From assembly GCF_058153355.1 (NCBI RefSeq), contig NZ_CM177019.1: 64,000 nucleotides of DNA. One strand, written 5' to 3'. The first letter of the stretch is position 1. Every line of letters begins with the position of its first letter. The position numbers and the translations under genes are program-made. This document shows positions 48,606 through 59,146 of this stretch, one piece after another. The notes beneath the pieces were generated by a model. That model searched no databases. It was not told the origin of the DNA and was given only the letters and a program-made list of their open reading frames with translations.

Positions 48606-48919
48606 TCTTTCCGCGTCTCATCTTTATCGGTGAGACGCACCCTCAAAATTCCTCCTTCACTCCATTGTTTTTTCGCTTTACTCCCGTTCATTCAACTTTA
48701 GTCTCCATTTTTTGCATTACTGCTATCTGTCAGACCTCCGTTTTTCTGTTGATAAAACACTCTTTTTGACGTTTTTATAGACTAATTGAGCGTGAAGTGT
48801 GCAAACGATAAAAGTGTGGGAAAAATTGTTTGACTTATAAGTCTCAGAAAGTAATATGTGCGCCACGCAGCGACGATGAGCGATAAACAAGTTCTTCGAA
48901 GCACTCGTAAGAGGCGTGT

Positions 48920-49012
48920 GGTGAGGTGGCCGAGAGGCTGAAGGCGCTCCCCTGCTAAGGGAGTATGCGGTCAAAAGCTGCATCCGGGGTTCGAATCCCC
49001 GCCTCACCGCCA
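48920..49012 (+). tRNA. serV: tRNA-Ser (GCU)
   Basis: 93-nt GGTGAGGTGGCCGAGAGGC...CGCCTCACCGCCA with long variable arm and encoded CCA. Confidence 0.95.
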
Positions 49013-49015
49013 TTT

Positions 49016-49092
49016 GCATCCGTAGCTCAGCTGGATAGAGTACTCGGCTACGAACCGAGCGGTCGGAGGTTCGAATCCTCCCGGATGCACCA
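49016..49092 (+). tRNA. argV: tRNA-Arg (ACG), copy 1
   Basis: 77-nt GCATCCGTAGCTCAGCTGGATAGAGTACTCGGCTACGAACCGAGCGGTCGGAGGTTCGAATCCTCCCGGATGCACCA; anticodon loop CT-ACG-AA. Confidence 0.95.
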
Positions 49093-49155
49093 TATTCTAC
49101 GAAATCTTCAGCGATGAAGGTGTCGAAGAGGTGGCGGTACTAACCGCAAGCACTA

Positions 49156-49227
49156 GGGAGGATAACGTTGCTTTAGCAACGGCCCGAAGGGCGAGCCGTA
49201 AGGCGAGTAATCCTCCCGGATGCACCA
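49156..49227 (+). other. Degenerate tRNA-Arg remnant (3' acceptor/T-stem half retained, body replaced)
   Basis: gggagg...[unrelated ~50 nt]...aatcctcccggatgcacca; the last 19 nt are identical to the 3' end of the intact copies. Confidence 0.5.
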
Positions 49228-49291
49228 TCTCTTACTTGATACGGCTTTAGTAGCGGTATCAAAAAATCTGCAGTAAAGTAAGTTTCCCGAT

Positions 49292-49368
49292 GCATCCGTA
49301 GCTCAGCTGGATAGAGTACTCGGCTACGAACCGAGCGGTCGGAGGTTCGAATCCTCCCGGATGCACCA
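49292..49368 (+). tRNA. tRNA-Arg (ACG), copy 2
   Basis: Identical 77-nt sequence to copy 1. Confidence 0.95.
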
Positions 49369-49470
49369 TATTCTCCGTAATCATCAGTGATGATGGTTAA
49401 GATGGATTTTCTTATTTGATATGGCTTTAGTAGCGGTATCAATATCAGCAGTAAAATAAGTTTTCCCGAT

Positions 49471-49547
49471 GCATCCGTAGCTCAGCTGGATAGAGTACTC
49501 GGCTACGAACCGAGCGGTCGGAGGTTCGAATCCTCCCGGATGCACCA
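49471..49547 (+). tRNA. tRNA-Arg (ACG), copy 3
   Basis: Identical 77-nt sequence to copy 1. Confidence 0.95.
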
Positions 49548-49757
49548 TATTCTCCGTAACCTTCAGCAATGAACGTATCGAAGAGGTAGCGGTACTAACC
49601 GCAGGCACCATCTTCTCCAAAAAATCCCCTTCAAAAATATTTCATTTCTAAATAACTATTTTATCCATTTCCTGAATATTCTTCTCCTTCGCCATCAGCG
49701 ACAAAATCAAGCAATTACGCTAAAGTAGCGTCATATTTTTCGACTTGCGAGAAGACC

Positions 49758-50324
49758 ATGTACGAGCGTTATGCAGGTTTAATTTTTGATATGGATGGCA
49801 CAATCTTGGATACGGAGCCTACGCACCGTAAAGCGTGGCGCGAAGTATTAGGGCACTACGGTCTTCAATACGATGTTCAGGCGATGATTGCGCTTAATGG
49901 CTCGCCCACGTGGCGCATTGCTCAGGCGATTATTGAGCTTAATCAGGCCGATCTCGACCCGCATGCGCTGGCGCGTGAAAAAACAGAAGCAGTCAGAAGC
50001 ATGTTACTCGATAGCGTCGAACCACTCCCCCTTGTTGAAGTGGTGAAAAGCTGGCACGGACGTCGACCAATGGCTGTAGGAACGGGGAGTGAAAGCGCCA
50101 TCGCTGAGGCACTGCTAACGCACCTGGGATTACGCCGTTATTTTGACGCCGTCGTTGCTGCCGATCACGTCAAACATCATAAACCTGCGCCAGACACATT
50201 TTTGTTGTGCGCGCAGCGTATGGGCGTGCAACCAACACAGTGTGTGGTCTTTGAAGATGCTGATTTCGGTATTCAGGCGGCCCGTGCTGCAGGCATGGAC
50301 GCTGTGGATGTTCGCTTGCTGTGA
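49758..50324 (+). CDS. yqaB: HAD-family sugar phosphatase
   Basis: 188-aa ORF with DxDG HAD motif (FDMDGTILDTE). Confidence 0.9.
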   Translation: MYERYAGLIFDMDGTILDTEPTHRKAWREVLGHYGLQYDVQAMIALNGSPTWRIAQAIIELNQADLDPHALAREKTEAVRSMLLDSVEPLPLVEVVKSWHGRRPMAVGTGSESAIAEALLTHLGLRRYFDAVVAADHVKHHKPAPDTFLLCAQRMGVQPTQCVVFEDADFGIQAARAAGMDAVDVRLL

Positions 50325-52389: not shown

Positions 52390-52462
52390 AAAAAGGCCAC
52401 TCGTGAGTGGCCAAAATTTCATCTCTGAATTCAGGGATGATGATAACAAATGCGCGTCTTTC
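52390..52462 (-). ncRNA. micA: MicA (SraD) small regulatory RNA
   Basis: Minus strand reads GAAAGACGCGCATTTGTTATCATCATCCCTGAATTCAGAGATGAAATTTTGGCCACTCACGAGTGGCCTTTTT, the MicA sequence with its terminator, between gshA and luxS. Confidence 0.9.
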
Positions 52463-58955: not shown

Positions 58956-59067
58956 TATTTTTATTCATCAGGTGATGATTAAGCTGGAAATCAATAATAG
59001 CGGATGTTGATGAATATGGGATGAAAGATAGATTGTTGAAATGTGCGGTGTGGTTTGTAGACATGAT

Positions 59068-59128
59068 AAGACGCGGCCGCGTCGCATCAGGCATTGTGTA
59101 CAGAGCGGCGGATAAGGCGAAAACGCCT
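59068..59128. repeat. REP elements between ygaY and proX
   Basis: gacgcggccgcgtcgcatcaggc and gcggcggataaggcgaaaacgccttatccgccc palindromes. Confidence 0.75.
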
Positions 59129-59146
59129 TATCCGCCCGAATAAAAA

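Follow-up and report, generated by a model that had tools for sequence, protein, structure and literature searches.

The segment that directly follows the first tRNA-Arg(ACG) gene of the serV-arg array, at 49093-49227 on the + strand of the window (the whole 64,000-nt stretch of DNA that we analysed), is very probably a tRNA-linked repeat (TLR) that corresponds to raV of K-12, with its core at 49156-49227, and not a decayed fourth tRNA gene (probability about 0.9). It starts at 49093, immediately after a tRNA-Arg gene, and two more tRNA-Arg genes on the same strand then follow; its last 19 nt reproduce the 3′ end of the preceding tRNA without a mismatch. Its core aligns locally with the element between argV and argY of K-12 at a score of 70 out of 72, which is equivalent to a single mismatch, and is common to the RtT repeat of tyrT and to copies linked to Lys, Pro, Glu and 5S genes in other genera. 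Furthermore, the arg locus is named in the strain table of PMC8144298, which has a deletion of argY/Z/Q together with raQ/Z/V as one of the deletions of the 22 TLRs.

Both the repeat class and its presence at this locus are already known. TLRs were first seen at tyrT in 1978 (Egan and Landy 1978) and 22 of them were catalogued by Rudd (1999) (both via Stenum et al. 2021, PMC8144298); the 22 lie at ten K-12 loci, each with an exact copy of 18-19 bp from the 3′ terminus of the preceding tRNA or rRNA, and have no known function (PMC8144298). The names raV, raZ and raQ used here are those of the supplementary strain table of that paper, which is later than Rudd (1999). The value of the element as a discovery is small, the three-gene array being a common copy-number variant and one of many natural ones; for annotators, the point is that TLRs should not be taken for tRNA pseudogenes or gene decay.

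Layout of the array

The locus is the E. coli csrA-serV-arg-yqaB region, on the + strand of the window. We denoted its repeated modules by letters: A is the 77-nt tRNA-Arg gene; B is a segment of ~63 nt with two hairpins and a GCACCA or GCACTA end; C is the 72-nt core with the 19-nt tRNA tail; and D is a 62-64-nt leader before the next gene. Bs, 41 nt long, is a variant that can be aligned with the start of B over its first ~17 nt. The features are as follows.

48830-48857, +: promoter-like site upstream of serV (TTGACT, 16-nt spacer, TATAAT-like TAATAT); consensus match only
48920-49012, +: serV, tRNA-Ser(GCU), gene and position as in K-12; ARAGORN and Rfam
49016-49092, +: tRNA-Arg(ACG) copy 1, counterpart of K-12 argV; ARAGORN and Rfam
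49093-49227, +: full TLR unit of 135 nt (modules B and C), counterpart of K-12 raV
49093-49155, +: module B of the first spacer, two hairpins with GCACTA at the end
49156-49227, +: module C, the TLR core (the "remnant" of the original prediction)
49209-49227, +: 19-nt tail equal to the last 19 nt of tRNA-Arg, the hallmark of TLRs
49228-49291, +: module D, 64-nt leader ahead of the next tRNA
49292-49368, +: tRNA-Arg(ACG) copy 2; ARAGORN and Rfam
49369-49470, +: 102-nt TLR-less spacer, Bs (41 nt) and a variant of D
49471-49547, +: tRNA-Arg(ACG) copy 3; ARAGORN and Rfam
49548-49610, +: terminal module B with a GCACCA end, fused straight to the distal tail
49717-49741, +: terminator-like hairpin with a T run after it, close ahead of yqaB (ATG at 49758); consensus match only

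The original prediction had reported three identical 77-nt tRNA-Arg(ACG) genes here and four in K-12. Both statements hold: ARAGORN, Rfam and an exact-string search agree on three mutually identical genes, and the K-12 four are argV, argY, argZ and argQ. The inter-tRNA-Arg spacers are 199 nt (first) and 102 nt (second). In the first, GGGAGG stands at 49156-49161 and the 19-mer AATCCTCCCGGATGCACCA ends the element at 49209-49227, exactly where both had been placed before, and the 135-nt unit is thereby flanked by a 19-nt direct repeat (49074-49092 and 49209-49227). One promoter-like site was found, against 1.5 expected in shuffles, and this site (48830-48857) is presumed from its sequence to be the operon promoter.

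At gathering thresholds, Rfam returned only tRNAs in the array region; sub-threshold matches to Plastid-ycf2, HPnc0260, mir-9128, YrlA and others were dismissed as antisense or partial tRNA matches. ARAGORN also called a tRNA-Arg(TCG) on the − strand at 49036-49107, antisense to copy 1 and to the start of module B; the same call is made in K-12 and in strain 24A16CRGN010, and it was rejected as an antisense artefact. A coding reading of the region (e.g., a tpr-like small ORF) was rejected as well, the only ORFs being mechanical ones of 20-89 aa that run across tRNA genes and spacers. Elsewhere in the window, Rfam matched two families at gathering level, the MicA sRNA (52391-52462, − strand, 83.9 bits) and, by a narrow margin, naRNA4/CssrE (59060-59137, − strand, 59.8 bits vs. 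a threshold of 59.5); both are ordinary in this part of the E. coli chromosome.

Structure and covariation of the core

The 64-kb window contains four copies of the 19-mer, one at the 3′ end of each tRNA-Arg gene and one at 49209-49227, with none expected from 100 dinucleotide-preserving shuffles; the copy at 49209-49227 is identical to 49074-49092 at 19/19 positions. The segment 49156-49227 folds into a closing helix and three hairpins (−33.6 kcal/mol, z = −4.0 against shuffles). In module C, P1 is formed by GGGAGGAT paired with ATCCTCCC, P2 is CGTTGC-TTTA-GCAACG, P3 is GCCC-GAA-GGGC, P4 is GCC-GTAA-GGC, and the 3′ terminus is GGATGCACCA. The 5′ strand of the element pairs with the copied T-stem strand, and the parts derived from tRNA are only the 3′ strands of the T stem and the acceptor stem, the interior being TLR core. 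The tail had been described as T-stem/acceptor-like, which is accurate. The ~50 nt ahead of it had been described as unrelated hairpin-forming sequence; hairpins are indeed formed, but the sequence is not unrelated, being the conserved TLR core homologous to the RtT of tyrT.

The structure is supported by comparison among 32 short-form Arg and Lys copies, in which the four helices are 96% paired, vs. 29-49% after the partners are shifted by 1-3 columns. Compensatory changes are seen in two helices: P1 has U-A for G-C between the Arg and Lys types and A-U for G-C in Hafnia, and P4 has G-C, C-G and A-U. The search pattern itself dictated P3 and the 3′ strand of P2, whose invariance is therefore partly by construction and carries no weight. 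A covariance model built on the short-form Arg and Lys TLR alignment, with the window and K-12 copies in its training set, gave a single strong match in the window (49154-49227, 98.9 bits) and three in K-12. The same model gave 80-93 bits for the TLRs of CFT073, O157 and H10407, which lay outside the training set, and 38-40 bits for the RtT copies of tyrT (E about 1e-8).

Module B ends with a short imitation of the tRNA 3′ end in K-12 and in other genera: GCACCA, the last 6 nt of tRNA-Arg, closes B in K-12 (L001), Enterobacter (L012), Klebsiella (L118) and Kosakonia (L036). In the window it is found at 49605-49610, but 49150-49155 reads GCACTA. The short hairpin and GCACCA end of B are conserved across genera though the rest of B is not, and module B may itself be an older, more decayed copy of the 3′ end.

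Relation to known repeats and processing by-products

The element shows no substantive difference from K-12 raV, which lies with raZ and raQ in the serV-argVYZQ operon: the locus and the position after the first tRNA-Arg are the same, and the sequence is essentially so. The array around it does differ from that of K-12, with only the raV counterpart kept, a TLR-less spacer at the position of raZ, and B without the 70-nt core at the position of raQ.

RtT (rttR) of the tyrT operon (RF00391; Bosl and Kersten 1991) shares with the element the core AACGTTGC..GCAACGGCCCGAAGGGYGAG..GAGTAATCC, a closing helix made with the copied T-stem strand, a CCA-ending tail that repeats the final 19 nt of the tRNA before it, and tandem placement within a tRNA operon. 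The Arg form is, however, short, without the two extra hairpins of the Tyr form (GAACC..GGTTC and GAGCG..CGAG); it has no tpr-like ORF, and its tail and 5′ strand are specific to tRNA-Arg. Searched with RF00391, the element did not reach the gathering threshold of 45 bits (30.6-33.8 bits, E = 3e-5 to 9e-4); in E-value mode the match spans 49100-49227 and is aligned through AACGTTGC..GCAACGGCCCGAAGGGCGAG..CGAGTAATCC and the CCA tail. The arg copies of K-12 score 29-31 bits and genuine tyrT copies 133-137 bits. Judged by its sequence, the element is a core homologous to RtT that lies outside the curated boundary of RF00391.

RrA, RrB and RrF, the TLRs after the 5S rRNA of rrnA, rrnB and rrnD (PMC8144298), belong to the same repeat class. 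They too carry a tail, here of 18 nt, that copies the 3′ end of the stable RNA before them, and their ends were mapped a few nucleotides past the repeats, consistent with RNase E; they differ in having a 5S rRNA host and a place between two terminators, in their GGA motifs, and in binding Hfq and CsrA in vitro. TLRs linked to tRNA genes are predicted not to bind CsrA (scores below 0.01; PMC8144298). 3′ETS-leuZ (Lalaouna et al. 2015, as cited in PMC8144298) is likewise a by-product of tRNA-operon processing released by RNase E, but it base-pairs to RyhB and RybB and has neither a copied tRNA 3′ end nor a TLR core.

Copies of the core in other species

We scanned a genome collection, with one genome per species, for a 19-nt core pattern, which returned 168 matches in 120 loci. 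Most of these (126/168) lie within 700 nt downstream of a tRNA gene on the same strand, and 125 of the 126 stand behind a Tyr, Lys or Glu gene or an Arg or Pro gene of either anticodon, the remaining one standing behind Ser with a mismatched tail. The tails were compared with the last 17 nt of the host tRNA:

Tyr(GTA): 51 copies, 50 tails tested, 42 identical to the host tRNA's last 17 nt
Lys(TTT): 37 copies, 37 tails tested, 29 identical
Arg(ACG): 24 copies, 23 tails tested, 19 identical
Pro(TGG and CGG): 8 copies, 8 tails tested, 5 identical
Glu(TTC): 3 copies, 3 tails tested, 2 identical
Arg(CCG): 2 copies, 2 tails tested, 0 identical
Ser(TGA): 1 copy, 1 tail tested, 0 identical (8 mismatches)

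A further 15 copies have no same-strand tRNA gene within 700 nt upstream but do have one within 400 nt downstream, and 27 have no tRNA gene nearby, including copies at contig ends and chance matches outside the gamma-proteobacteria. Copies are found mainly in Enterobacterales, and also in Gilliamella (Pro) and Aestuariibacter (Glu); those of Marinobacterium and Amphritea are linked to Arg-CCG and have partly decayed tails. The form goes with the host: it is short in 20/21 distinct Arg-linked sequences and long in 38/41 Tyr-linked ones. The Arg-linked tail tracks lineage-specific substitutions in the tRNA, reading ATCTTCCTGGGTGCACCA in Hafnia and Yersinia and CCTCCTGG in Serratia and Pantoea, and the short-form copy of Hafnia has the compensating 5′ strand GGGAAGAT.

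No tRNA genes accompany the matches in Rhizobiaceae, Actinacidiphila, a Clostridia MAG and Shinella, which were set aside as chance or coding matches; the case-by-case review of core matches covered those other than in Archangiaceae, Minwuia, Sandarakinorhabdus and Kaiparowitsia. We considered the GAACC..GGTTC hairpin of the long form as a relic of a T arm and dropped this idea, since its upper stem covaries freely across tRNA types.

At two loci (L009 and L110) the core is followed by a tRNA-Thr gene, and the sequence after the core, AACTGCCAGGC, is not a tRNA 3′ end. In L009 it continues as AACTGCCAGGCAT, which we take to be the 3′ end of 5S rRNA. The two loci look like members of the family in rRNA operons, of the RrA/RrB/RrF type; at similar loci, too, the gene after the core is tRNA-Thr or tRNA-Asp. 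At four others, in Citrobacter werkmanii (L005), Citrobacter sp. FP75 (L014), Kosakonia cowanii (L037) and Trabulsiella odontotermitis (L120), a tRNA-Tyr body (anticodon arm to AAGGTTCGA) is fused to an RtT core that ends in a decayed tail. ARAGORN called no gene in the fusion, and an intact tRNA-Tyr lies 76-84 nt further on; this looks like a deletion that joined tyrT to its repeat via the shared GGTTCGA.

Variation of the array among E. coli strains

In K-12 MG1655, the argV-argY spacer (198 nt) has the element in the equivalent place, and further copies lie in the argZ-argQ spacer and after argQ. Written in modules, the arrays compared are:

K-12: A-BCD-A-D-A-BCD-A-BC-tail; 4 tRNA-Arg genes, 3 TLR cores
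Window and 24A16CRGN010 (99.7% identical): A-BCD-A-BsD-A-B-tail; 3 genes, 1 core
PRO_A: A-BCD-A-D-A-BsD-A-B-tail; 4 genes, 1 core
O157 PA20: A-D-A-D-A-BsD-A-BC-tail; 4 genes, 1 core
CFT073: A-D-A-D-A-D-A-D-A-BC-tail; 5 genes, 1 core
H10407: A-D-A-BCD-A-tail; 3 genes, 1 core

Strains either have or lack the whole 135-nt B + C unit, as a clean indel bounded by the 19-nt repeat. The first spacers of O157 and CFT073 are without precisely the raV unit, with the break at that repeat, and in strains without raV module D directly follows the first tRNA; the first spacer of O157 matches module D of the window at 64/64 positions. The distal end of the window array is without exactly the 70-nt raQ core, which is kept in K-12 and CFT073, and its breakpoint falls inside the GCACCA repeat, while the distal end in H10407 is without both B and C. 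The 102-nt Bs-D spacer is also present in O157 and PRO_A, and the window array is that of PRO_A minus one A-D unit.

Copy number varies widely. In 5,425 complete E. coli genomes, the 77-nt gene is present in 1-9 copies per genome (median 4; 21,501 places in total), and about 5 genomes in an evenly spread sample of 60 have three. Together with the modular architectures across E. coli, this range bears out the suggestion of the original prediction that repeated blocks shared by the spacers go with changes in copy number. Unequal recombination or slippage would take place at the repeated 77-nt genes, 19-nt tails, GCACCA ends and D leaders, and such nested direct repeats would account for the window array with three genes and one TLR where K-12 has four genes and three TLRs. 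The raV core with its flanks is matched in full in 4,175/5,426 E. coli genomes; in B2-type strains, e.g., CFT073 and APEC O1, the match is limited to the tRNA end and D.

In E. coli IH5 (L128, NZ_CP168949.1), serV and one tRNA-Arg annotated as 74 nt are followed directly by a partial pdeC pseudogene and soxS, with no yqaB. The exact 77-nt gene was not found at this locus, and the genome has two matching places only; this looks like a chromosomal rearrangement with its breakpoint at or near the array.

Alternative explanations

The original prediction was that the first spacer holds a strain-specific fourth tRNA-Arg gene whose body had been deleted or replaced, so that this array would be left with three copies where K-12 has four. 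The tail does consist of 19 nt of tRNA-Arg, GGGAGG resembles the 5′ strand of a T stem, and the window does have one gene fewer than K-12. The comparison with the K-12 locus had been chosen beforehand as one that could overturn this explanation, and there the equivalent 198-nt argV-argY spacer carries the element in the identical place, with two more elements beside four intact genes; the element coexists with all four genes in K-12 and therefore cannot be the remains of the gene that the window is missing. On the + strand of 49093-49291, neither ARAGORN nor the Rfam tRNA model called a gene, and no cloverleaf and no remains of a 5′ acceptor strand, D arm or anticodon arm were found. The interior is, moreover, a conserved core that also stands behind Tyr, Lys, Pro and Glu tRNA genes, and relative to the four-gene array of PRO_A the window is short of one whole tRNA-plus-D unit, its second spacer being the 102-nt TLR-less variant. 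We thus regard a degenerate fourth gene as exceedingly improbable. It is also very unlikely that the three-gene array is a four-gene array collapsed or misassembled. Short-read assemblies readily collapse tandem repeats of 140-280 nt, but the independent complete genome 24A16CRGN010 has the same architecture with 99.7% identity over 911 nt, a single place covers at least 80% of the locus in 817 genomes, and three-gene arrays occur in several complete genomes of the sample of 60; such recurrence in independent complete genomes argues against misassembly.

With the segment read as a TLR, two further proposals concern where it came from and what it does. It might have arisen by site-specific integration at a tRNA 3′ end, with the 19 nt as a duplicated attachment core, and be an inert DNA scar today; what integrated would be either a small element or one that was once larger and has left only a stump, as with integrases that target tRNA genes. 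A 135-nt unit between perfect 19-nt direct repeats that start in the T loop, its clean presence or absence at that repeat, and homologous cores at several different tRNA genes are consistent with such an origin. However, no integrase or other gene is associated with the element, which is too small for autonomy; the compensatory changes in P1 and P4 and a tail that tracks tRNA substitutions suggest that conversion or selection is still at work, and not that a scar is decaying; and the cores group by host tRNA type, so that old vertical descent fits better than recent insertion. We consider this origin improbable, and it does not exclude the identification as a TLR, as it concerns origin alone. 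A regulatory role of its own, as a small RNA from the operon acting as an acceptor/T-domain mimic, by base-pairing or by binding protein, is also rather unlikely, even with a core and fold conserved across many genera, RtT-family RNAs detected in Actinobacillus, and Hfq and CsrA bound in vitro by the 5S-linked RrA, RrB and RrF (PMC8144298). The phenotype claimed for RtT in 1991 was later assigned to a neighbouring ORF; no function is known for TLRs, and those linked to tRNA genes have predicted CsrA-binding scores under 0.01; a strain deleted for all 22 TLRs is in the strain table (PMC8144298); and natural E. coli lineages exist without raV.

One broader version of this proposal, to which we give similarly little credence, is that TLRs are a functional family of structured RNAs, conserved across Enterobacterales and reaching Orbales and some marine gamma-proteobacteria, whose helix and CCA tail are kept matched to the host because they mimic its acceptor/T domain. 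If so, they could guide or buffer 3′-end processing in the operon or titrate a reader of uncharged CCA ends; this would apply to the whole family, and the copy in the window would not be special.

Proposed expression and processing

By analogy with RtT and RrB, the TLR at 49093-49227 would be co-transcribed with the tRNAs of the serV-arg operon and released by the cuts that free them, as an RNA of ~130 nt from just after 49092 to about 49227. One cut is predicted a few nucleotides past the CCA of argV and the other after the element's own CCA-ending tail, since the tail would offer the same local context to the 3′-end processing enzymes (RNase E, then exonucleases). In K-12 the annotated rttR RNA begins 7 nt past tyrV, and its 3′ end coincides exactly with the CCA of its repeat. 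The 5′ end of RrB lies 3 nt past the 5S rRNA and its 3′ end 3 nt past the copied 18-mer, both attributed to RNase E (PMC8144298), and RtT-family RNAs have been detected on Northern blots in Actinobacillus (PMC4986893). Processing of the element into a discrete RNA is thus supported by analogy, with its precedent in RtT, and the product and its ends as given here are predicted ones. The element would be dispensable in nature.

tRNA-Arg dosage

When argYZQ is deleted, tRNA-Arg2 falls 16-fold and growth in rich medium is slower (PMC13170351). Effects of tRNA-Arg(ACG) dosage are thus measurable, which makes the range of 1-9 copies a real and ordinary source of physiological variation. The K-12 deletion in question (2815672-2816445; PMC13170351) removes three of the four genes, and the drop is 16-fold instead of about 4-fold. 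In PMC8144298 this interval is listed as the deletion that takes out raV, raZ and raQ, and the excess drop could reflect loss of the spacer/TLR context or of the distal end of the operon.
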